Shown: positions 9,785 through 62,990 of the stretch, in pieces
Position numbering within the stretch: the first letter of the stretch is position 1
Layout: every line of letters begins with the position of its first letter
Source of the DNA: Lytechinus variegatus
Taxonomy: Eukaryota
NCBI RefSeq assembly: GCF_018143015.1
Contig: NC_054742.1
Location: 16,118,441 to 16,182,440, forward strand
Direction: 5' to 3'
Length of the DNA: 64,000 bases
Program-made: the position numbers and the translations under genes
The notes under the pieces: generated by a model
What the model was told of the DNA's origin: nothing
Database searches by the model: none
The model's input: only the letters and a program-made list of their open reading frames with translations

Positions 9785-10545
9785 TATCGCTTAACCCTAA
9801 AAAGACTGGGGGCTGATTCAGCCCCCCCCTTGACATTTTTCGCGTTAAATCCGCCGCGCAAATTTTTTTGACCGCGTCGCTCACTGACTTTTTACTTTCA
9901 AGTCTCGGGCAACTGTTGAGACCAAAATTGTGACCCCTGGGTACTCGGTTCCGAAATTACGCAACATTTTGTAAGTGCATGCAGACCCCAAATTACTCAA
10001 AAACGTGAATTTGTGTACAAATCCAATGCAAATAGTGTTTTCAGTCAAAATTCATAAATGTATCATTATTTTTCCTTTTACTGCTTAAAATCAATTAATA
10101 TTATCTTTAAAATGGTCAAAATAAAGCCCCTGACAATTTCCATTAAAAAAAACAATAAAAAAAAACATAAATTCGAAAAACAGAGAAATACATAAGAAAT
10201 TTAGAAAACAATAGAAAACATAAAAAAAATAAATGTGATGTTGAAATTTTTTAAAATAAATTTTATCAGATGCATATCTAGAGTATGTGAAACAAAAATA
10301 AGCAATTCAGGGGCATTATTTTATTAATTAGAGCAAACTTATGGTTTTACGCATAAATTAGCATAATTTATGAGACATGAGATTTTTTGCAGAATTTGAT
10401 GTTATAGTTTTATAGGTAATCCCATGGGTAATGCGTGTGCCAATGTTCGTCGCGATCGCGCGATCGACGGCCGAGATCATAAGGGTGGGCTGAATCAGCC
10501 CCCCCCCGTCTTCTTAGGTGTCGAAATAGCCCAGTCTATTTAGGG
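9785..10545 (+). mobile_element. piggyBac-like MITE copy 1 (761 bp). TTAA target-site duplication on both sides (9781-9784 and 10546-10549). TIR CCCTAAA(A/T)AGACTGGG.
   Basis: TTAA flanks and CCCTA-type TIRs read directly. Near-identical to copy 2. Confidence 0.85.
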
Positions 10546-11576
10546 TTAAAGAGGGCGCCCTACCATGAATCCGGAATTGTAAAATTCAAAGTGAAATTGT
10601 AAAAAAAAATGCAAAGGAGTATTTTCGTTCAATGGGTACAATTATTAACCACACCTACATGAATTAAAATGGATTGATGCCAGTAGTGGACAGTGAAATC
10701 TTTAAAATAATTATCCCAATGATAAATGATAGAGGCCGGGTCCTCTGCAGGTTAATCGGTACAAGGCCTACCTATATATTTAACAAAGAACAGCGTATAC
10801 AAAGTTTTTCCGAAACAGAGTCTCTCTCTCTGTTATCTCAACAACAATTATATCTTTGGTGAGAGGATCTTTTAGCATACTTTGAACATCAGGAGAAAGA
10901 GGCTGTGCTTGTTGTACTCTTAAAAATTTGCTACTAATCACAATGTCACTTGTTACCATTAGTCTGTGGAATACATATAAAGTCAATAAGATTCATAAAC
11001 CAATCAATCCTTGAAATGATAATATGCACTTCCTTCTTGATTGATTTTAACAATAATTTATAGCAAATTTAGAATGAGCCAAGAGATAAACGAATTCATA
11101 CGTGTATGTGAAGTTACATACCCTTCATTTCTTTCTTCTTTTTTTTTTGGGGGGGGGATAAATACTGATAATGATAATGCAACATATACATGTATAGATC
11201 CCACGTATCTGTCATTTTCATATTCTGGCAGAAAACTGAGTGAGACCAATCACATCCCTAGTCATGTGTGTTATAGCGATATACAGTAGGACTTGCCTTA
11301 TGATAGCGATATACAGTAGGACTTGGTTTATGAACAACAAAACAAATTAATAATCTTACCCGGGAATCTTACCTTAAGAATTAATCTTCTCAGAATGACA
11401 GCATATATGCAACACGGGATGGAACAGTTTGACATCAAAATGAAGTTGTTTTACATGTATTACTATATAGTTAGTGGAAGTGGAAATGAAAGCTTGTCTT
11501 AGCGTATGTTTAACGAAAATATTTTAGGAAGATACCAGTCTAAAGAACCAGACACCTGAGCCAGACACCCCACCCC

Positions 11577-18299: not shown

Positions 18300-18540
18300 T
18301 GCAGTTTCCAGTGGCGTAGCGAGGATTTTTTTATCGGGGGGGGGGCACTGGTGGGTCCTTGCTTTTTTCAGGGGGGGGGGGCACCGGCCATTTTTCCGAT
18401 GTGTGTGTATGTGTCACAAGGGCGGATCCGACTTTTGCCAACAGGAGACGGGGCCCGAATTATATTTACCTATATCAGTCACTTCTTAGTTTTATTCTTA
18501 TAAAACAACATAAATATGAAATAATCTCATAGCCTTATAC
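18300..18540 (+). mobile_element. Repeat-family member: gcagtttCCAGTGGCGTAGCgagg...GGGGGGGGGCAC...gggcccgaattatatttacctatatcagtcacttcttagttttattcttataaaacaac. Possibly SINE-like.
   Basis: CCAGTGGCGTAG also at 19770-19790 (rc) and 28620-28640. Tail matches 28645-28700. Confidence 0.5.
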
Positions 18541-23560: not shown

Positions 23561-24419
23561 TCCTAACTGGGCGTTGTGGTGTGCACCTGTATTGCTGTAA
23601 TCCAAGCTGTTGGGAAGTTACAAATTGATGCAGAGGTTCGAGCCCTGGTCACGTCTTTCGGATGGTGACGTTAGAGGTCGGTCCCAGACGTAAATAATCA
23701 TATCTGATTGATACACGTCTGACAAAACTCAAATACACACACCCCCATCCTACTTCATTGGATTTGGAGTCTTGAATCCCCTCCATATGCATATGAGACA
23801 CATGTAAAAACTGATGGATTTCCCTAGGAAATCCACCATTTTTATTAAAAATCACGTAAATGGTCATGATTTTATTAATCTCTATACCTTCCTATGCCTA
23901 ATGCGTAGGTAGGTTTAAAAAAATTAGTCAATTAAAATGTTAAAAAATAACTGTTCCTTACCAGACCAATGTGTAGATCGCTCGATCCAAATGTATGCAA
24001 TGCAAATACAATATTTTAAATATTAGTGTTTCTTTCCCTCTCCGAAAAGTGAGCACAACACTTAGATATGTTTGTTAAAATGATATTCCTATGCCTATGG
24101 ATACATGTAGATGTACATTTATTGAAAAGGGAGGTTAGGAATATGACGAAGCGATGGAGAAGGAGAGAATAAAGGGGGAAAGATAAAGAGGAGAACAGGA
24201 GTGATGTTGAGAAAGAGTTTTAGTTAGTTACAAGAAAATATTACACTTCTAAATTATACAAAAAAATGTTCATCTGAAATTGCATCCATGTGAATTCACC
24301 AGACTTAATCTATGTTGTGTTTTTAAAGCACGTTTAAAAAAAAAACAGGTGTTTTAAAACGTGTGTTTAAACATGTTTTAAAACGCACTGTTTAATAATT
24401 TGGTGTGTATGATTCTAGC

Positions 24420-24535
24420 ATGGATTCCAGGAAGCCTATTGATTTTGAGGTCAAAAGGTCACAGGTCAAGATTACAGTGACATGTTTTCATCTTACCTTC
24501 TGAAGTCCTTGTTAACACACTGTTTAAAACACGCC
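24420..24535 (+). repeat. Family-B repeat unit (gtgtgtatgattctagcatggattccaggaagcctattgattttGAGGTCAAAAGGTCACAGGTCAAGattacagtgacatgttttcatcttaccttctgaagtccttgttaac).
   Basis: Recurs at 24880-25165, 26196-26320, 28160-28380, 30965-31190 and (inverted, tandem) 59840-60680. Confidence 0.8.
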
Positions 24536-24720
24536 AACCCTGCACACAAAGGAATAGCGTAAGAAATTTTTTTAGAAAAGGTGTATTTTCAATGACCTAT
24601 AAGAATGGGAGAGTTTCTTATAATACTAGAAGAGGAATTCCAGGTTTAGAGCCAGCAACTGGAATAGATATACATGTACCGGTAATAGTATTTGAAATGA
24701 AATAGCAAAACCTGTCAATG

Positions 24721-24735
24721 TTTATATAATTTTAT
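24721..24735 (+). promoter_or_regulatory. TATA-like element (tttatataatttta) about 35-45 bp upstream of the inferred MRPL9 ATG.
   Basis: Sequence motif and position only. Confidence 0.25.
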
Positions 24736-24765
24736 ATTGCCTTTCTTTTCCTTCCTCCCAGTGTC

Positions 24766-24864
24766 ATGTTTTCTTCAATCTGTCAGTCATTATTGACTCG
24801 ATCCAGTCAGTTTATGGTTTCTGGTTTTAGGGGCACAGCAGCAATACAATGGCAGCAACTAAGA
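24766..24864 (+). CDS. MRPL9: MRPL9-like exon 1. ATG at 24766, 33 codons (MFSSICQSLLTRSSQFMVSGFRGTAAIQWQQLR), S/R-rich like a mitochondrial presequence. Ends phase 0 at an AGA|GTAAGT donor.
   Basis: In-frame ATG about 30 bp downstream of a TATA-like motif (tttatataat, 24721-24735). Consensus GTAAGT donor at 24865. Phase compatible with exon 2. No sequence homology in this exon; placement is inference. Confidence 0.45.
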
Positions 24865-24879
24865 GTAAGTTTTTTAAAT

Positions 24880-25165
24880 AAATTTTATATGGGACGTATT
24901 ATGGTATCACACTCCATGTCCGTCTGTCCGTCAACTTTGTAAATGCGATAACTTCAGTTTAACTCAACCTAGGCTCATATAATTTGGTGTGTATGATTCT
25001 AGCATGGATTCCAGGAAGCCTATTGATTTTGAGGTCAAAAGGTCAGAGGTCAAGATTACAGTGACATGTTTTCATCTTACCTTCTGAAGTCCTTGTTAAC
25101 GCGATAACTTTAGTTTAACTTTACCTAGGCTCATATAATTTTGGGTGTATCATAACTAGCTTAGA
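24880..25165 (+). repeat. Family-B element head (gggacgtattatggtatcac...gtccgtctgtccgtc...) plus about 1.5 units, in MRPL9 intron 1. Interrupted at 25165 by a TIR element.
   Basis: Direct comparison with 28160-28380 and 60600-60680 (rc). Confidence 0.75.
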
Positions 25166-26200
25166 TCCCAGGGGCCCGTTTCTCAACACCGTCATAAGTC
25201 TAACTTCTTGACTAAATCGGAGATAGTGGGCTACTTGTCTGCTAACTGTTTCACGAAATGTTTTCATCGGGTACAACAACCTCACTAAATATTTATGACA
25301 CCTCCGAACCTGTCATAACTTCTTAATGACGTAGTGGCATCACGTAGGTAGACTACATGTATGACATGCAAAAGTGCCGATAAATTTGAAAATTATAATC
25401 TTACGTAATCAATCATAGAGGTTGAAATTACATCCCAAAACAAGTGGGATAATGCATTCAATGATCACTGTAATACAAAGTAACTATGAAAACTGTTGGT
25501 AAAACGCCACAAAACCATTCATTTTGAAATAGTAAAATAATTTAATCGATGAAAATTCTACCATGTCAGGCCATCCATAACTGGACTTGTATTTGTAGTT
25601 TTCAGACCCTATTGACATTTGGATAAATTCTAATCTCTAATTTATGCATAGAATTTGTCAAATCGTAAGATTGGTATCAAAGATTTATAAAAAAAAATGT
25701 TAAACTATATTTTGATGATGTTTGGAATTGTAAAACATGGTATGATTATCATAATTTTACAAATAAAACCGTTATGGTTTACTTTCGTAAACTATTAAAA
25801 TTGGATATCCCGGGGTACCCATCTCAACGTCCACATGTGATTTTTTAGTCATGAAATAAATTATTCATAATTCTATTTTTCAGCAGTTGAATGCCCCAGT
25901 CTTCATGGTCTAAGTATGTATGATGCATAATTTACCCGTGCTATTATTTTTAAAAGATGTAATTCCCAATTCATCACAATATTTGTAATTTTGTCATAAT
26001 TTTTATTTTTGAAAATTATGCTATTTTGTAACTAAGGCTACATCTCGTCTGCTCTTTTTACCGATAATATCAATATCAAGGTATTTTAGTTAGGAAGCCT
26101 TTCGTGAAACAGGTTTAGTAAGATTGGAACTAACTCTGTGGTTTGTGGATAAAGATATGACTAACTTGTCCAGGTGTTGAGAAACGGGCCCCAGGTATTC
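25165..26200 (+). mobile_element. ~1-kb TIR element (TIR CCAGGGGCCCGTTTCTCAACAC) inserted into a family-B repeat. The B sequence resumes at 26196.
   Basis: Inverted termini at 25168-25195 and 26165-26195 read directly. Confidence 0.65.
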
Positions 26201-26682
26201 TATTGATTTTGGGGTCAGAAGGTCAAAGGAAAAGTTGCCACTTTCCACTTTTCTTGCTTGACCAATAAGTCATTTTCTGTGTTAAAGGCGGGAATTTTAT
26301 GTGCTCGCATCTTGTTAGAATAAGATTCTTGTAAATGATTTGACCTACATGTACTGCCTACAGAAGCAGGAGCCATTTCAATGGCAAATTATTGGATAGA
26401 GGGGTCTAGTGATGTAAAGTATTTATTTCTTTGGAGCTGTAGATTATTTTGGATAATTGTAATATCTCTATGTAGTGAAATAAACAATGATGGCCTTTTC
26501 TGTATAGCTGTATTTTCGTTGGGAGATTAATAGAGTTGTCTGGATTAATGCGGTTGAAATGCTTGTATTTTTGATTAACCAAATTGTTATATTTACACAT
26601 TATTTTGATCTCCCAGGGTGTTCAATGCAACTAGGTTTATTGTATATATGTTATTCATGTGACTTGTATGGATTTTTTTCAG

Positions 26683-26842: not shown

Positions 26843-28159
26843 GTAAGTTAAAGGAAATAATGATTTTTTTTTATATATATATTCAATTGAATTGAATAGT
26901 TTACATATTACAAAGATAAAAATATACAAAGCATAACAAAGAACATTATCAAGAAAACAAACAATTTTATAAAAAAAAACATACAATGGAAATGAGAAGA
27001 GATCATGAAAAAATTTGAAAATAATTCACATGATCCCAATTAACATTAAGATAAGACTTAACATAATAAATACATTCAGAGATTTTTAGAATTGGTTAGA
27101 GATTGATTTTAAAAGAATTGGGAAAAGAAGAAAACAAAAATTATGTATCTGTATTTTGTTTAGCAGTAAATAGTCCTCAACTTCCATAAATTTAAGAGAG
27201 TTTAATGAGTTCTATTGTTTTTAATGTTACCTGGTATGTTATTTCAGAGAAGTGGCCCTCTACATGTTTCAATCGATCTAAAAAGGAGGTATGACCATGA
27301 TTGACTTGATAATCTTATCTGATTCATGTATCATGAATATGAATGCTTTTGTGTCTTACAAAGCTAGAATCAAATACATGAAAATACCCAAATTGTAGTT
27401 GTGGAGTTATATACATTTTGACATTAAGAATATGAAGTTTTTTGAAAAATATAAAAACAGGTTCAAGGATGCAACTAATCTATTAGCAAATACTGGTATG
27501 TGTGATGCAAGTCATGTTCCAGCTGTGCATTATGGATGCATCATTTTCACCTCTTACTGTGCACTTGAAACCGAGTTGCCATGAAATATTCTTTCTTTAA
27601 GGAGAATGGTATCATTGAATAGATTTGATGTGCTTCCTCAGATACACTTCATACTATCCACATTGTATGCTTGTGATATGGGGTTTGTGCTATCAGAGGA
27701 AATTTTGAGGAATTTCATTAAAGTCTTAAGGCTAGGTCCCACTGCACGTATGGATGCAGAGAAGATGGAATAGGGAAAACAATCTTGCCATCCATTTGAA
27801 AATGTTATGTATCCGTCGTGTACTCTTTGCATACATGTTTCATACGCTCCAGATATAATATCCACTGAGCATCCGTCCACTGTGATTAAATTGTTCACCC
27901 ATTTTGTCCATTGTCTGGAGCGGATGGAGCAACCACGAAATTTTGCTTGGCCACTGTATCCATTATGAATACGTTTTGTGTCCGTCGGCCAGTGGGACCA
28001 GGCCTTTACTAACCAACATTTCCAAATTGAATATTTCACAGGTTTGACAGTGGGGTCTGCATAGCAAGTAGCAGGTATTTTTGTTATTGCGGCATCTTTC
28101 ATTGTTATTGAATTAACAAAAAAAAATTTGTTGGAATTTTTATACACCCGTCCTAAGGA

Positions 28160-28380
28160 TGTATTATGGTATCACGCTTGGTGTCTGTCCGTTAACTTTT
28201 CCTTGTAAACGCGATAACTTCAGTTTAACTTAGCCTCGGCAAATGTAATTTGGTGTGTATGATACCAGCATGGTTCCCAGGAGGCGTATTGATTTTGAGG
28301 TCCATAGGTCAAGGTCACACTGACATGTTTTCATCTTACCTTTCTGAAGTCCTTGTTAATGCGATAACTTAATATAACTT
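28160..28380 (+). repeat. Family-B head plus 1.5 units. This is the left half of the B copy that was split by the Penelope-like insertion.
   Basis: Direct reading. Confidence 0.75.
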
Positions 28381-28619
28381 CTGAAGGGTTACGTGGCGAA
28401 GAAGAATAGTATAGTAGGTTTCACGGTACACCATGTATCTTTCTTTGGCAAGTGTTGGTCCTGAAAAGGACCACCCAATCTCGATATTTCGACAAGTGTG
28501 TTCTTGTCGTCCTCAGGAGAATGAGCAAAGGTTTGTAAAATCAGGCCTTGTATACTCTGTCGAAGTGCCGTCTGCATGGTATCTCGCAGGGTACATGTGT
28601 CTGATTGGCTAGAAAAGTC

Positions 28620-28700
28620 ACATGACATCCAGTGGCGTAGGGGACGGGGCCCGAATTATATAAACCTATATCAGTCACTTCTTAATTTTATTCTTATAAA
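28620..28700 (+). mobile_element. Fragment of the CCAGTGGCGTAG...GGGGCCCGAATTATAT...TATATCAGTCACTTCTTA repeat family, also at 18300-18540.
   Basis: ~80-bp match to 18440-18520. Confidence 0.6.
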
Positions 28701-29990
28701 ACAACATATGAAATATCTCCCTGTGCTGTCCTCGTAATCTTTGTATCAAGAAAGGGGATAGACCCCTCATTCTCCATTTTCATGGTGAACTTGATTCACT
28801 CGTGTTGAGAGTTTAGGTGCTGTAAGAAATTGCTAGTTTCCTCAGCTCCGTGTTGCCAAACCATGAAAGTGTCGTCCACATATCTAAGACACACTTTGGG
28901 TTTGTGGGTTGCTGACTGGAGAGCCGTTGCCTCGAAGTGTTCCATGAACATGTTTGCTACTACTGGGGACAGGGGAGACCCCCATGGCAGCCCCCTCCGT
29001 TTGCCTGTAGAATGTGTCTCTCCATCTGAAAGAGGTGGATTTGAGGCACATCTCAAGCAGGTCATGGATCTCTAGAGGAGACAACTGTGTCCTGTCGGAG
29101 AGTTCTGTCAAATTTCAATCTCTCAAGGATGATGGCGCAAGCATCCTTGTACACTGGTACACTTGTGAAAAGTGGCTCAACATCAAAGCTGATCTCTGAT
29201 GAGGAGGTCATTGTTAGAGATGGTCGTCTGACAGATCTGCTCAACGAAATGTTTAGAGTTTCTCACGTGATGTACGCCGTGACCAACAAGAAGCTGTAAG
29301 ATGCTAGTCAAATGTTGAGCCAGGGCGTACGTGGGAGATCCTCTAGTAGACACAATAGGTCTGAGTGGAGTGTCTGGTTTATTAATCTTCGGTTGCCCAG
29401 AGATTATTGGACATAGACCAGACGAGCTCCGGAGTTGTTGGTAAAGGGGTCTAGATAAGACATCCTTCCTCTGGAGAGAGAGGAGCTTATCGTTAACCCT
29501 ACGTTCGATGGCCGGTGTGGGGTCTCTAGGAAGTTTCCTATAGGTCCCCGAATCCAGTAGTCTTTGAACCTTGGTCTCATAATCCAATCTGTCCATCACA
29601 ACAGTAGCATTACCCTTGTCTGCCTTGAGAATATGAATGGAATTATCTTCTCGGAGACTAGCAAGGCCTGACTTCTCGGCTTTGGTGAGGTTGGGCCGAG
29701 GTTGGTTAACCGAAGTCAGTACTTGTGAGATTTGGATACGAAATGTGTTTGATTGAGACCAAGTAAGATTTCTGAGGCTAGGTTCAATCTTCTGGATGAT
29801 TTCTTTTCGGTGAACTTGCTTAACCTTATGTTCGTTCTCATACAACTGACATTGACTGAGGTTGACAACAGTTTTGCTAGGATGCAAGTTGCGTCTAGGC
29901 TGGCGGTTGTGTCTCGGCTGGCGGTAGTGTTTCGGCTGGTGTTTGTTGAAACGGGAAGGACGGATCAGTTTCTCAAACTTCCTCACTTGT
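28700..29990 (-). pseudogene. Degenerate reverse-transcriptase ORF of the Penelope-like element. Split over at least three frames (listed ORFs 29183..29986, 28884..29111 and 28796..29065, all minus strand).
   Basis: Recognisable RT motifs through the YVDD box, but frameshifted. Ends in stops before any endonuclease domain. Confidence 0.7.
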
Positions 29991-30964
29991 TTGGACTGAG
30001 TTGTCTAGAAAACAAAGTGGCTAGAAGATTTGATGAGACGATTGATTTTACCCCAATCATTGCTCGAGGGCTTTGACTTAAGGTATTCTTCTGATGTTTC
30101 AACACAAGGTTGAAGTTGTCTGAGCTGGTTATGGACGTATCTGATCCTCTCTCTGATGAGAATCTCAGAAGCATGTCTACGAACCTGCTCCGCTCGTCTG
30201 GAACGGACAGGTGCATGGAGTACCAATCCGCGGGGGATAACCCCTGAATACCTGCACCTTTTGAGAAAGGTGAGGTGGTTGACAAATCTGGCTTCTTTGA
30301 TCTTGTTCCGCTGTAGTCTTCTGGAACGATATAACTTCTGAAAGTTTCCATGGCGAAGAAGAATAGTATAGTAGGTTTCACGGTACACCATGTATCTTTC
30401 TTGGGCAAGTGTTGGTCCTGAAAAGGACCACCCAATCTCAACGTTTCGACAAGTGTGTTCTTGTCGTCCTCAGGAGAATAAGCAAAGTTTGTAAAAGCAG
30501 GCCTTATCTATATACTCTGTCGAAGTGCCGTCTGCACGGTATCTCGCAATGTACATGTGTCTGATTGGCTAGAAAAGTCACATGACATCCACATGTGCGG
30601 ACGTGGGTGACAACACACAAAATTGGGCGCGCAAAACCAGCGACGACCGGAATTGCCGTCAGTTGTCATTCCCGCTAGGATTAGCATGAATGACAAAAGT
30701 CACCACTTTCGTCGTGCACTGCAATGCTCACACATGTGTAGAAAGTTTCGGTAGGCTAATTAGGCAAATTAGCCTCTTTGTCTAGAACGGTAAGCCAGAT
30801 GTTGCTAAGTTGGAGGCTGCTGTCTTGAGGAACAGTGTTATGTTCCTCAATCTCCAACGCTTCTCTGACTCTCTGCTGATACCAGTAGGGGACACGGGTG
30901 ACCAGTCTACTCTCATCCCAAAGGATCCAGTGATCGTGCATATGAGCAAGTACATGGTGTACCA

Positions 30965-31190
30965 TGAAACCTATTGCACTGCGATAACTTTAGTTGAACT
31001 TAACCTAGGCTCATATAATTTGGTGTGTATGATACTTGCATAGATCACAGGAATTCTATTAATTTTGAGGTCAGAAGGTCAAAGGTGAAGTTGCCACCTT
31101 CCAATTTTCTTGCTTGACCAATAACTCCATTTTCTGTGTTACAGGTGAGCGTATTATGTGCTCGCCTTAGCGACACTCTTGTTCTTGTTG
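30965..31190 (+). repeat. Family-B tail (resumes at gcgataactttagttgaactt, the same ~20-bp stretch that closes the left half at 28360-28380), ending ...gagcgtattatgtgctcgcc. This is the right half of the split B copy.
   Basis: Direct reading. Matches 26196-26320. Confidence 0.75.
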
Positions 31191-41019: not shown

Positions 41020-41745
41020 CCCTAAAAAGACTGGGGGGCTGATTCAGCCCCCCCTCGACATTTTTCGTGATAAATCCGCCGCGCGAAATTTTTTGACCGC
41101 GTCGCTCACTGAATTTTTACATTTAAGTCTCGCGCAAATTTTGAGACCAAATTTGCGACCCCCGGGTACGCGGTTCCGAAATTACGCAACATTTTGCAAC
41201 TGCATGCAGACCCAAAATTGCACAATAACGGGAATTTGTGTACAAATCCAATGCAAATAAAGTTTTTAGCCAAAATTCACAAATGTATCATTATTTTTCC
41301 TTTTACTGATTGAAATCAATTAATTCCATCTTATTTATGCTCCAAATAAAGTCCCCGACAATTTCCATTGAAAAAACAATAAAAAACAGAAAGTCGAAAA
41401 ACAACGAAATACATGTAAATAAATGTGATTTTGATTTTTTTTTCGTACATTTGATCAGATTCATATAAAGTGTCTGTGTACCAAAAATTAGCATTTTAGG
41501 GGCATTATTTAGTTGATTAAAGCAAAATTTTGATTTTACGCATAAATAAGCAAAATTAATTAGCAATGGGATTTTTCACAGAATTTGATCTAGTAGTTTT
41601 GTAGACTATGCCATGGGTAACACGCGTGCCAAGTTTCCTCACGATCGCGCGATCGACGGCCGAGATCATAAGGGGGGCCGAATCAGCCCCCCCCCCCGTC
41701 TTCTTAGGCATCGAAATAGCCCAGTCTATTTAGGGTTAACAGAGT
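41020..41745 (+). mobile_element. piggyBac-like MITE copy 2 (726 bp). TTAA at 41016-41019 and 41746-41749. Lies in the MRPL9/MTX2 intergenic region close to the MTX2 3' end.
   Basis: Same TIRs and internal sequence (gatcgcgcgatcgacggccgagatcataagg...) as copy 1. ORFs 41012..41260 and 41613..41822 are repeat-derived. Confidence 0.85.
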
Positions 41746-59275: not shown

Positions 59276-59839
59276 AAATTCAATAATACAAGTGATCTTA
59301 TAACTACACTAGGATGGATCTAAATAAAAAATTATACTCAGCAGCAGGGCAAAACCCAATGAAATAAGGCAACCATGCAAAATGTTAAAAAGGGGGAAAT
59401 GGTGTATGAGAAGTGTAAGTTCTTGGCATGTTAGAAGTATTATGCAACATCGGCATGAGTTCAAGAAACCATCTCAGCAAGCAAAATATAGCGAGCAACC
59501 AATCAGAATGGACCAATGACTTACATCCAACTTGCTGCTGATGACCTTTTATACCACAACAGAGGGAGGCACAAAACATAAACAAAAATAAATGAAATAA
59601 AGGCAAAGGGATATGACAAAGCACAAGAAAAAAAATCAGCATGAAAATAAAATTCACAAGATACTATTGACTTGAGAAATATAGTAGCACTGATTTTCAA
59701 TCTAAAGAGTACTTCTTTCCTTTTCTTCAAAATAATGAATATATTCCCAAACAAGAGTGTCACTAAAGCGCGCACATAATATGCCTGTCTGTAACACAAA
59801 AAATGAAGCTGTTGGTCAAGCAAGAAAGTGGAAAGTGGT

Positions 59840-60680
59840 GACTTCACCTTTGACCTTCTGACCTCAAAATCAATAGAACTGCTGGGATCTATGCTAGTAT
59901 CACATGCACCAAATTATATGAGCCTAGTTTAAGTTAACTGAAATTATTGCGTTTTCAAGGACTGAAGAAAGGTAAGATGAAAACATGTCACAGTGATCTT
60001 GACCTTTGAGCTTTTAACCTCAAAGTCAATAGGCTTCCTGGGATCCATACTAGTATTATACACACCAAATTATATGAGCCTAGGTTAAGTTAAACTAAAG
60101 TTATCGCATTTACACGGACTTCAGATGGGTAAGATAAAAACATGTCTGTGTGACCTTGACCTTCAACATTTTGACCTCAAAATCAATGGGCTAAATGGGA
60201 TCCACACTAGTATCATATGCACCAAATTATATGAGCTTAGGTTAAGTTAAACTGGACTTATCATGTTTACAACGACTGCAGAAGGGTAAGATGAAAATAT
60301 GTCACTGTGACCTTGACATTTGACCTTTTGACCTCAAAATCAATAGGCTTCCTGAGATCCATGCTATTATCATACACACCACATTATATTTAGCCTGGGT
60401 TAAGTTTAACTGAAATTAACTAACTGAAATTAACACGTTTACAAGGACTGCAGAAGGGTAAGATGAAAATATGTCATTGTGACCTTGACATTTGACCTTT
60501 TGACCTCAAAATCAATAGGCTTCCTGAGATCCATGCTATTATCATACACACCAAATTATATGAGCCTAGGTTAAGTAAAACTGAAGTTATCACGTTTACA
60601 AGGAAAAGTGAACGGACGGACAGACAGACGGACACTGTGCGTGATACCATAGTACGTCCCATCTAGGACGGGCATATAAA
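59840..60680 (-). repeat. Family-B array in reverse orientation: about 5 tandem ~150-bp units followed by the inverted element head (60600-60680).
   Basis: Periodicity read directly. ORFs 60474..60662 and 60571..60885 are repeat-derived. Confidence 0.85.
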
Positions 60681-61010: not shown

Positions 61011-62769
61011 CATGCAAAAATCCATAAATTGCAAATAAGTCAAATAAGGTAGGCTATATGATCAAATCCTCTATTGATATTGCAGCTATAAAGTTTTCTT
61101 CATTTGATTTAAGGCTTTTATTTTCCCCCTTCATGCAATGAAAACGAATAAAATTTTCATGATTTATAAATGATAAAATCCGAGTGATTGACTAAATTTG
61201 AGATTTTAAGATTTTATAGAAGTCTAAACAAAACTTTCATTGGTACATCAAGCTACTACATTCAAGCACATTGTGTTTCAATTTCATATTTCTAGATGTG
61301 TCTGGAATCAGTATCATACACATTACAATATTGAATAATAATTAAATTTAAAGTTAAAACATTTAAAGGAGAGATGTTTTCACTGAATTGTGAAATTTAT
61401 TAATAATTTAACCATCTATAACTAAAACATTTTCACATCTCCCAGGAATAAACAATAACTTAAGAGTAAAATATCCCCTGTCTGATGATATATTATTGAT
61501 GTGTGATTAAAAGAATTGGAACACTGACTGCTGATAACAGTGTTCCAATTATAAATGTATTATCTCTTACTTTTATTAATGTCATACAGTATGATACACA
61601 AGTCATATACATGCACTGATTACAAACAGACTGATATATAGAAACAAAAGACAAATTTAACAGATTGGGTGATACATATTACATTATTCATTATTATGTT
61701 TATTAATACCTGTGACATGGTCTGTTCAGTAATTGGTACATCATCCCCTCTCAGTGAAACTCTTTGTGCAACAGCATTTGGGTCTGCTTCAAGAACAATC
61801 CTGAGAAATGAGAACAATCAGCAAAGAGAATTGGCGCATATACATTATGTACAGTGCTTAGTAGAGACCTAAAAAAAGGCTTTTTTATTTGCACTCCTTA
61901 GAACTAAGAACAGGAGAGCTCAGATTCACTTTCAGAAAGTTATTAAATATCTTCATATTTGGATGTAAGTGCGTGGTACAAGATCTAGGTTTACTGTTAT
62001 TTACTGACCAGAGCTCTTCATCTTTTTGCACTATTTGTTTCTAGTCAACGTAAAGAAATACAGGCAGTACAAAATTATTTTAACAGTGGATTGAAATGAA
62101 TTAATTGCAATATATAATTAGGAAGCTATTTTGTCATTTTATATTAAAAGGGTTGGGGGCATTCAACTGTTGTTGTATCATCTTTATTCACAGTTTTAAA
62201 AAATGGCACATTCACATACAGATAAATAGATACGCTCAAATTCTTAAGTTTTTCTTGTGAATTTGAGATAATCAGCTTAAGCTTCAGACCAACAATAAAA
62301 GGTAACAACATCCCTTGTCATTAAAGGGAAAAGGAATTAAATGTCACATATCCTTTGTTTTAGGAGTAATCTAAAACAGATGTAGACGAGTTGACATCAA
62401 TTGTCTCTGAGAATTGGAACAGCAAAATTTGTAACCCGATACTTGTACAGCATTCAGACACAAATTGATTCCAATCTCAAATATATCACAAATACCAAAC
62501 AAATCTTTTATTTTTTGTTGCATGGAAGGAAACTCTTTTATTTAATCACATCCTGCCTAGACAATCCCCTCATTTCCATCAATGGTTTGAATTTCATTAG
62601 CTTTCTGTTTGCTTCTTTTTTATCTTTATATCTCTATGTCTGATTGGATAGTTCATCAGATTTTGTTTTAAACTGATTTTGGCCTTATTGTGGCCATGTT
62701 TAGGAAAAATAATCTTAAAAACCTAAAAAAACAAATTGTGTTAAAATGGATAGGAAGAAACAATGCTGA

Positions 62770-62990
62770 ATGTACAGAATGGTGTTGTGCTCCTCAATTC
62801 CAAGGCCGACCTCAAGGATGTTTATGTATCCTCGACCTTGTCCTTGGCTTTTGACATATAGTCCTTGGCCTTTGAGTCTGAAGTCCTTGGCCTTGGTCTC
62901 GAAAGAGGCAGGAAAAGGCCAGTAGCGACCGCACAGAAATTCTTTTAGTGGCGGTGTTGTTAGCGCTAACAAGTCACTAACAAATCAGCC
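62770..62990 (+). repeat. Short tandem repeats ((A/G)AGTCCTTGGCC x about 4) followed by a palindrome tgttagcgctaaca and CACTAACA repeats.
   Basis: Read directly. ORF 62715..62972(-) overlaps. Confidence 0.6.

Follow-up and report, generated by a model that had tools for sequence, protein, structure and literature searches.

A decayed Penelope-like retrotransposon of the sea urchin Lytechinus variegatus with a histone-signal look-alike in its terminal repeat

For Penelope-like elements (PLEs), insertions with pseudo-long terminal repeats (pseudo-LTRs), an adjacent inverted 5′-truncated copy and a 30–40-bp tail have been described (PMC8557442), and for a PLE of Anolis reverse transcription was found to proceed from two internal sites in the next open reading frame (ORF), both DNA strands being cleaved and extended in vitro (PMC11167929). 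In addition, the minimal hammerhead ribozymes of metazoan PLEs are known to have an unpaired nucleotide after A9, a long helix II, a short helix I and a loop-less, palindromic helix III, and to act as dimers (PMC4209133). Here, we analysed 64,000 nucleotides of the Lytechinus variegatus genome (contig NC_054742.1, 16,118,441–16,182,440; hereafter the window, whose own numbering is used throughout) and found that positions 28372–30980 of the minus strand are, with high confidence, a single insertion, old and dead, of a Penelope-like retrotransposon that belongs to the Penelope/Poseidon type and contains an endonuclease. As in Penelope of Drosophila virilis and PAc/Poseidon of Anolis carolinensis, partial-tandem pseudo-LTRs and an inverted 5′-truncated copy are found, and the element also has in common with Penelope/Poseidon PLEs a 30–40-nt tail attributed to two internal reverse transcriptase (RT) start sites in the next ORF, a target duplication of variable length and a hammerhead motif in the pseudo-LTR (PMC8557442, PMC11167929). 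In contrast to these elements, the window copy is dead and internally deleted, and its family bears a histone-like hairpin followed by a purine box. It also differs from PAc in the placing of two signals, since the RT start sites of PAc lie at +111 to +118 and its hammerhead overlaps the ATG, whereas here the start sites would fall ~13 nt before and ~20 nt after the ATG and the hammerhead lies ~120 nt upstream of it.

A sequence-only reading of this DNA had proposed a PLE insertion for the block 28381–31190; the insertion stands, whereas its limits have to be moved to 28372–30980, with a family-B repeat as the host sequence on both sides. Read along the minus strand, from upstream to downstream, the locus comprises the following features.

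30981–30990, minus strand: 5′ copy of the target-site duplication (AAGTTATCGC), the identical 10-mer being present at both junctions, inside a family-B unit.
30951–30980, plus strand: 30-nt inverted mini-copy of the 3′ end of the element (AGTGCAATAGGTTTCATGGTACACCATGTA), an inverted repeat whose outer end is the tail-less 3′ terminus.
30756–30950, minus strand: 5′-truncated upstream unit, with the last ~63 codons of the GIY-YIG endonuclease and the stop codon (30756–30758), from tblastn, domain alignment and the DNA match to the L. pictus copy L001.
30592–30755, minus strand: unique part of the 3′ untranslated region (UTR) of the upstream unit, colinear with L001 6672–6834 and deleted from the downstream unit.
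30329–30591, minus strand: pseudo-LTR copy 1 (263 bp), direct repeat with 28372–28631, containing CCAAT (30561–30570), a TATA-like box (30508–30515), the minimal hammerhead (30431–30482), the hairpin (30414–30429), CAAGAAAGA (30395–30403), the ACATGGTGTACCG box (30375–30393) and the ATG of the ORF (30349–30351).
28720–30351, minus strand: decayed ORF with the N-terminal domain and the RT to just past motif YVDD/FLD, from three-frame translation, tblastn to the relatives P0001, P0002, P0003 and P0005, and an RVT_1 match.
28637–28719, no strand assigned: foreign filler of ~83 nt, 89.5% identical to window 18443–18528, with nothing similar in PLE copies.
28372–28636, minus strand: pseudo-LTR copy 2, containing the minimal hammerhead (28474–28525), the hairpin (28457–28472), AAAGAAAGA (28438–28446) and the conserved box (28418–28436), and ending in the 36-nt tail (28372–28407).
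28361–28370, minus strand: 3′ copy of the target-site duplication (AAGTTATCGC), separated from the element by a single T at 28371.

The inverted 5′ mini-copy, the internal deletion with its filler, the hammerhead, the 36-nt tail and the histone-like hairpin were absent from the features listed in the sequence-only reading.

The assignment to PLEs relies first on the decayed ORF. Indeed, the RT motifs already noticed on the minus strand (ADKGNATVVMD, GQPKINKPDTPLRPIVS and RYVDD, with AAMG|SPLSP straddling a frameshift) are present together with PKI(N/H)KP..PLRPIVS and SFDV..LFT, so that the motif set of a PLE-type RT, including the DKG motif, is present, and the residues of the DKG region and of the core RT motifs are invariant across nine relatives. 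One ORF piece of 89 aa matched Pfam RVT_1 (E 1.8e-8), and full-length relatives of 790–860 aa run colinear with the window ORF, from residue 2 to ~557 over 30379–28700 (tblastn E 2e-166). The conceptual translation has 1,511 homologous proteins at E ≤ 1e-5, of which the best named matches are ‘uncharacterized proteins’ of L. pictus (89–91% identity), followed by proteins of L. variegatus, Strongylocentrotus, Diadema, starfish and a crinoid, and then of insects and Anolis. An architecture of RT, DUF8422 and HTH_animal is common to the best homologues, and GIY-YIG is fused C-terminal to the RT in all close homologues. The ORF itself has at least four frameshifts and two stops: an indel or frameshift directly follows METFRSYI, the interval 29200–28985 contains three frameshifts of +1, and the stops are in frame and lie near 30006 and 28798. 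An 18-bp tandem duplication (2.1–2.6 copies, 29888–29939) was also observed in the N-terminal region; it encodes HYRQPRHNRQPRRN and is absent from P0001 and P0005.

The second line of evidence is the endonuclease. The peptide of 30759–30947 is 92% identical to the last 63 residues (494–556) of the L. pictus PLE protein P0002 (tblastn E 4e-32), which bears out the endonuclease tail that had been placed at 30756–30965, and the last 55–65 residues of the relatives align to 30947–30759. This fragment corresponds to the distal third of the GIY-YIG domain, including the invariant glutamate of REA.EI, and from 30948 onward the DNA of the endonuclease tail is 92.7% identical to L001. In the full-length relatives, GVYxIPCxCGKVYIGETxR...EH...H...REAxEI is conserved, and Pfam GIY-YIG (PF01541) was found in three of the six that were aligned (best score 26 bits, for a cut-off of 22.6); the profile check proposed in the sequence-only reading thus succeeded for the family and failed for the fragment on its own.

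Within the PLEs, the presence or absence of a CX2-5CxxC motif in the linker separates Neptune/Nematis from Penelope/Poseidon (PMC8557442). No such motif was found in the linker before the GIY-YIG domain of P0001, P0002 and P0005, which by this published criterion points to Penelope/Poseidon rather than Neptune/Nematis, and Anolis carolinensis proteins, found among the matches at 36% identity, give a second support for this clade. Note that P0001 had no match in a sequence search of the PDB, and that an NCBIfam search returned generic prokaryotic RT families only, well below their cut-offs. The element type is already known, and the family, which is abundant in Lytechinus sea urchins, is known in the sources only as ‘uncharacterized protein’. 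Altogether, the window copy is a decayed and rearranged PLE, ordinary apart from the histone-signal look-alike in its terminal repeat. As transposon annotation, the correct labelling of 2.6 kb of sea-urchin genome as a dead PLE is routine; the copy nevertheless brings together, in a compact example, PLE features that are hard to annotate (pseudo-LTR, tail, inverted 5′ stub and a minimal ribozyme invisible to Rfam).

Several observations weigh against this identification of the block. Rfam finds no hammerhead, either in the whole window at the gathering score or in 28300–31100 at E ≤ 10, and the endonuclease tail alone (69–75 aa) matches no Pfam family. The divergence between the two pseudo-LTRs (7%) is close to that of each from L001, so a single-event origin is not proven. 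Finally, the Penelope/Poseidon call is a provisional one, drawn from the missing zinc-finger motif of the linker and the Anolis matches rather than from an RT phylogeny.

Regarding the ribozyme, each pseudo-LTR contains CUCAUUCUC-CUGAGGA-C-GACAAG-AACACA-CUUGUC-GAAAC-GU(U/C)-GAGAUUGGG, at 30482–30431 and 28525–28474, that is, a minimal hammerhead whose core is intact, in which an unpaired nucleotide follows A9 and whose helix III lacks a loop. The motif resembles the ribozymes of metazoan PLEs (Cervera & De la Pena 2014) in its CUGANGA...GAAAC-GUH core, in the sizes of helix II (6–7 bp) and helix I (4–5 bp), in the loop-less helix III (ACGU) and in its presence in both flanking repeats; it differs from them in that the Rfam hammerhead models do not recognise it and in that ACGU has decayed to AUAU, still palindromic, in the 3′ copy of the window. 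Since helix III has no loop (palindromic ACGU), action as a dimer is implied. The same motif was found in every related family fetched, with the helix II variants GAUAAG/CUUAUC and GGACAG/CUGUCC, and a further variant (GACUAG/CUAGUC) occurs in loci outside the covariation count. Over the ten pairs of helices I and II in an alignment of eight sequences, 93.8% of the cells are paired and five pairs are changed on both sides, whereas only 25–40% are paired in a control with slid 3′ partners. Moreover, 28 of the 80 PLE loci retrieved from metagenomes have a hammerhead of the same type. This covariation supports the presence of a minimal hammerhead ribozyme in the pseudo-LTR, with self-cleavage predicted at the GUH site. 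In the families that could be read, CCAAT and TATA-like boxes stand 25–40 nt upstream of the ribozyme and may act as a promoter.

The same repeat holds a second structured motif. GGTCCTTTTCAGGACC, at 30414–30429 and 28457–28472, is followed by 10 nt and then by CAAGAAAGA (AAAGAAAGA in the 3′ copy); GGUCCUUUUCAGGACC begins 10 nt after the ribozyme cleavage site, and CAAGAAAGA is followed by UAC. The hairpin has a 6-bp stem and a 4-nt UUUC loop and fits GGYYYU-UHUH-ARRRCC. We compared it with sea-urchin histone genes (the late H2B of L. pictus and two early H1-H4-H2B-H3-H2A repeats), whose real 3′ ends read aaC-GGCYCTTTTCAGRGCC-ACCAnnnnnn-(C/T)AAGAAAGA, with a distance of exactly 10 nt from the stem to the purine box, and score 34.8–41.2 bits on Rfam Histone3 (RF00032). 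The window element has the 6-bp stem, the UUUC loop and the A/C-rich 3′ flank of the histone pre-mRNA signal, and its CAAGAAAGA also stands exactly 10 nt past the stem, as in sea-urchin H2A, H3 and late H2B. In contrast to the histone signal, it is located in a retrotransposon repeat and not after a histone ORF, its 5′ flank is not A-rich, the third pair of its stem is U-A instead of C-G, and its score falls below the Rfam gathering value.

Two explanations of this likeness have to be weighed. We tentatively propose, with the chances slightly against it, that an echinoderm lineage of Penelope/Poseidon-type elements co-opted the 3′-end signal of host histone genes (the stem-loop and, in sea urchins, the U7-complementary CAAGAAAGA), and that part of its RNA would be bound by SLBP and/or cut by U7. 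U7 small nuclear RNA has a universally conserved box, UCUUU, to which AAAGA is complementary (PMC5054213). The competing explanation, which we also regard as possible without being probable, is that the hairpin and CAAGAAAGA are a chance likeness, a neutral passenger (e.g., a scrap of a histone 3′ end) or a PLE-specific structure for RT binding, without any role in RNA processing. In its favour, the window copies score only 16.2–16.5 bits for a gathering score of 34, even if Histone3 is the sole family-relevant Rfam match, and their 5′ flank is UGGGU and not the A-rich AAC of real histone genes. Chance is harder to reconcile with the frequency of the pattern GGYYYTTHTHARRRCC, which occurs twice in the 64-kb window, both times in the pseudo-LTRs, for 0.02 occurrences expected, or with the fact that hairpin, 10-nt spacer, 9-mer and following TAC are equal to the 3′ end of L. 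pictus late H2B.

Besides the window, the module was found at the loci L002, L004, L006, L007, L008, L013 and L015, and its form varies among families as follows.

L002: GGUCCUUUUCAGGGCC, 13 nt, then CAAGAAAGA; Rfam Histone3 not reported.
L007: GGUUCUUCUCAGAACC-ACACACACUCA-CAAAGAGAAAA; Rfam Histone3 35.5 bits, above gathering, E 1e-6.
L006 (Diadema): CCAAC-GGUCCUUUUCAGGACC-ACUAC; Rfam Histone3 29.1 bits.
L004 and L008: AGUCCUUUU(C/U)AGGACU ... GAAAGA; Rfam Histone3 not reported.
Starfish families: AGUUCU-U(C/U)UC-AGAACU, a clear purine box not being seen.

The variation is informative in both directions. The A-U closing pair of the Strongylocentrotus purpuratus and starfish families, and the starfish hairpins without a clear AAGAAAGA, fit a chance or passenger origin, while the scores of L007 and L006, both related PLE families, argue against it. 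So does the conservation of the hairpin: its stem is paired in 100% of the cells of eight sequences, with two compensatory pairs, amid a UTR that cannot be aligned except for the ribozyme, an invariant ACAUGGUGUWACCG box and the start codon, and a neutral passenger would not outlast the divergence of the ORFs to 47–59% identity. Minimum-free-energy folding of the region (z = −2.9) also yields the hairpin. Of 80 PLE loci that are more distant, only L015, the closest relative (56% identity), has it and the other 79 lack it, which argues for a lineage-specific acquisition and not for a general PLE structure. Two points of position again speak for the absence of a processing role: for a transcript that begins at the TATA box of the pseudo-LTR, the signal would also fall within the presumed 5′ UTR, and the 3′ ends of insertions are, in all observed cases, 49 or 85 nt further downstream than the hairpin, which means that the templates of retrotransposition were not cut at the hairpin. 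Overall, the histone-type hairpin and its downstream element are well supported as a conserved sequence feature, while a function in RNA processing is only predicted. A search of the available literature for histone stem-loops in transposons and for CAAGAAAGA returned nothing relevant, which is weak evidence of novelty.

Neither the regulation of PLE transcripts nor the formation of their 3′ ends is understood, and the sea-urchin embryo is a classical system for histone RNA processing. If co-option had occurred, part of the PLE RNAs would be non-polyadenylated, and their abundance or translation would be tied to S phase, the histone-rich oocyte and the cleavage-stage embryo, while read-through RNAs would serve as templates for retrotransposition. 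After hammerhead cleavage, the hairpin would be only 10 nt from the new uncapped 5′ end and might recruit SLBP there instead. A transposon borrowing the SLBP/U7 pathway would represent a new kind of host-transposon interaction. In human immunodeficiency virus type 1 (HIV-1), of the two LTR copies of the poly(A) site only the 3′ one is used, the 5′ one being silent. As in retroviral LTRs, a single repeat of the PLE combines a putative TATA-type promoter with a candidate 3′-end signal downstream, and the signal therefore lies near both the 5′ and the 3′ end of a unit-length transcript; in contrast, the PLE repeat arises from tandem copying instead of strand transfer, and its signal is of the histone and not of the poly(A) type. 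That the two copies of the signal might be used differentially, as in the HIV-1 LTR, is pure conjecture based on this analogy.

Turning to the structure of the insertion, the direct repeats 28372–28631 and 30329–30591 align over 264 nt with 92.8% identity (E 5e-109); the repeats of ~250 bp located by the sequence-only reading (28386–28636 and 30345–30598) are therefore real and extend slightly further, and its partial tandem is confirmed as well, since an endonuclease tail, a 3′ UTR and one repeat precede the ORF and the second repeat. The copies are spaced 1,957–1,960 nt apart, which, corrected for an 898-nt deletion, gives a unit of ~2.77 kb. The deleted part, for which the filler stands in, comprises the C-terminus of the RT, the endonuclease and the first part of the 3′ UTR (L001 5937–6834). 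The filler sequence (GGGGCCCGAATTATAT...CTTATAAAACAAC, 81–86 nt) also occurs 10 kb away, at 18443–18528, with 89.5% identity, and is probably a fragment of another dispersed repeat.

The 3′ end was defined by comparison with other copies. L001, a 5′-truncated copy of L. pictus that is 93–94% identical to the window copy, ends at ...cctaccacacta, 36 nt before the end of the window copy, and is then followed by its own 12-bp duplication (aaggtatagcaa); from this earlier terminus, the window copy bears a 36-nt tail. This tail extends ~20 nt into the next ORF, whose ATG is there mutated to ACG, and copies of two other families (L002 and L004) likewise end 21–24 nt into the next ORF. Both optional PLE features are thus present, the tail (36 nt relative to L001) and the inverted 5′ copy (30 nt at 30951–30980). 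The latter is 87% complementary to 30365–30394 and 28408–28437, with mismatches that are all transitions, and is joined to the endonuclease sequence at a shared CATG. In L004, an intact S. purpuratus relative with 100% identical pseudo-LTRs, a 322-nt inverted copy abuts the upstream pseudo-LTR, with its outer end ~15 nt before the ATG; the 30-nt stub of the window is a miniature of this arrangement. A partial tandem is also found in L002. The third family copy (L014) is 3′-truncated within the 3′ UTR and gives nothing on the 3′ end or the hairpin. The ACATGGTGTWACCG box (30375–30393 and 28418–28436), a candidate recognition or initiation element for the RT, is invariant in the sea-urchin and starfish PLE families. 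The tail-less 3′ terminus follows it by ~10–20 nt, and the inverted stub has the same box at its core.

At the target, intact family-B units read ...aact[a/g]AAGTTATCGC[g/a]ttaacaagg, and the 10-bp duplication restores an intact unit. Family B is a 157-bp tandem unit and flanks the insert at ~28138–28370 and 30981–31183, so that the splitting of a family-B repeat, as first proposed, is verified. The target duplication of ~20 bp claimed along with it must be shortened to the 10 bp of AAGTTATCGC, because the adjoining AAGTTATAT (28372–28380) is the element's own tail and recurs at 30329–30337 in the internal repeat copy, just past the start codon of the ORF.

From the published biochemistry of PLEs (PMC11167929) and not from data of this locus, we infer the following order of events. 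A multi-unit RNA would have been transcribed from a tandem source, starting in the pseudo-LTR promoter. The GIY-YIG endonuclease would have cut the 157-bp family-B repeat at AAGTTATCGC, leaving a staggered break into which this RNA was copied. Reverse transcription would have begun internally, ~20 nt into the ORF of the next unit (hence the 36-nt tail), crossed one unit and come to a halt within the endonuclease region of the upstream unit, leaving the partial tandem and hence the pseudo-LTRs. The other DNA strand may have primed a second complementary DNA (cDNA) at the alternative start site, the one without a tail; aborted after 30 nt and joined at the CATG microhomology, this cDNA would have given the inverted 5′ mini-copy. 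Later decay would then account for the frameshifts and stops in the ORF, and for the loss of 898 nt and its replacement by the filler. The two 3′ termini match the two-start-site model from the in vitro work on Anolis and provide an independent genomic example in a distant phylum.

An origin in two or more separate events, in which a short 5′-truncated PLE, with endonuclease tail and pseudo-LTR, was later hit by a second copy homing to its tail or was rearranged by unequal recombination, is unlikely. The divergence of the pseudo-LTRs invites it, since they are 92.8% identical and no closer to each other than to L001 (92.5–92.7%), although a heterogeneous tandem source and age explain this divergence equally well, and L004 has a two-unit structure with identical pseudo-LTRs. 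A PLE endonuclease was reported to cut its own pseudo-LTR/tail region (PMC11167929), and the target AAGTTATCGC resembles the tail end of the element, AAGTTATATCG; however, a single pair of target duplications flanks the whole block, with no internal duplication at the unit junction, and this junction is exactly the colinear pseudo-LTR-to-ORF sequence of the intact tandem copies L002 and L004. By comparison with a single insertion of a PLE, an LTR retrotransposon with genuine LTRs (or a DIRS element with split repeats) and an RT of that class is an extremely improbable reading of the repeats, even if two direct repeats of ~260 bp with CCAAT and TATA-like boxes flank the RT-coding region, because each repeat passes the start codon by ~20 nt of coding sequence and the first one is directly preceded by endonuclease coding sequence of the same family, while no gag, protease, RNase H, integrase or tyrosine recombinase was found in any frame (which settles the check for true LTRs suggested in the sequence-only reading), RT and GIY-YIG occur together in all homologues, and the duplications, of 10 bp in the window copy and 12 bp in L001, do not have a fixed length of 4–6 bp. 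Classification as an LTR, DIRS or long interspersed nuclear element (LINE) was consequently rejected, as was an artefactual duplication in the assembly, the repeat copies differing by 7% and by small indels.

Among minor observations, the two clean target sites, AAGTTATCGC and AAGGTATAGCAA (L001 5010–5024 and 7061–7072), resemble the element's tail end AAGTTATATCG, which suggests, from the sequences compared, that the endonuclease may prefer such AAG(G/T)TAT-like sites. A family-B-like repeat also holds the copy L014, at a similar position (...GTTAT.GC...). In the window, family B forms an array of 4.8 copies at 59838–60604 and further arrays near 24.4–25.2 kb (24396–25172) and 26.2 kb (26192–26308), with dispersed copies elsewhere; some copies end in (GACGGACAGAC)-like motifs, and a related repeat flanks L014 in L. 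pictus. The EIEEHNT-type peptide at 62.7 kb (62715–62972, minus strand), which had been taken as a hint of a further PLE remnant, shares GIEEHNT only: none of 120 PLE proteins matches this segment by tblastn at E ≤ 10, and it has no nucleotide similarity to any PLE locus, so it was rejected as a chance likeness. In L001, a near-perfect palindromic hairpin at 10914–11002 resembles Rfam mir-9 and mir-77 on both strands (43.6 and 41.5 bits, below gathering); an inverted-repeat element is a likelier explanation for it than a microRNA gene. Finally, a dispersed repeat at window 9823–10368 and 41047–41414 is common to L001 788–1332, with 79–84% identity.

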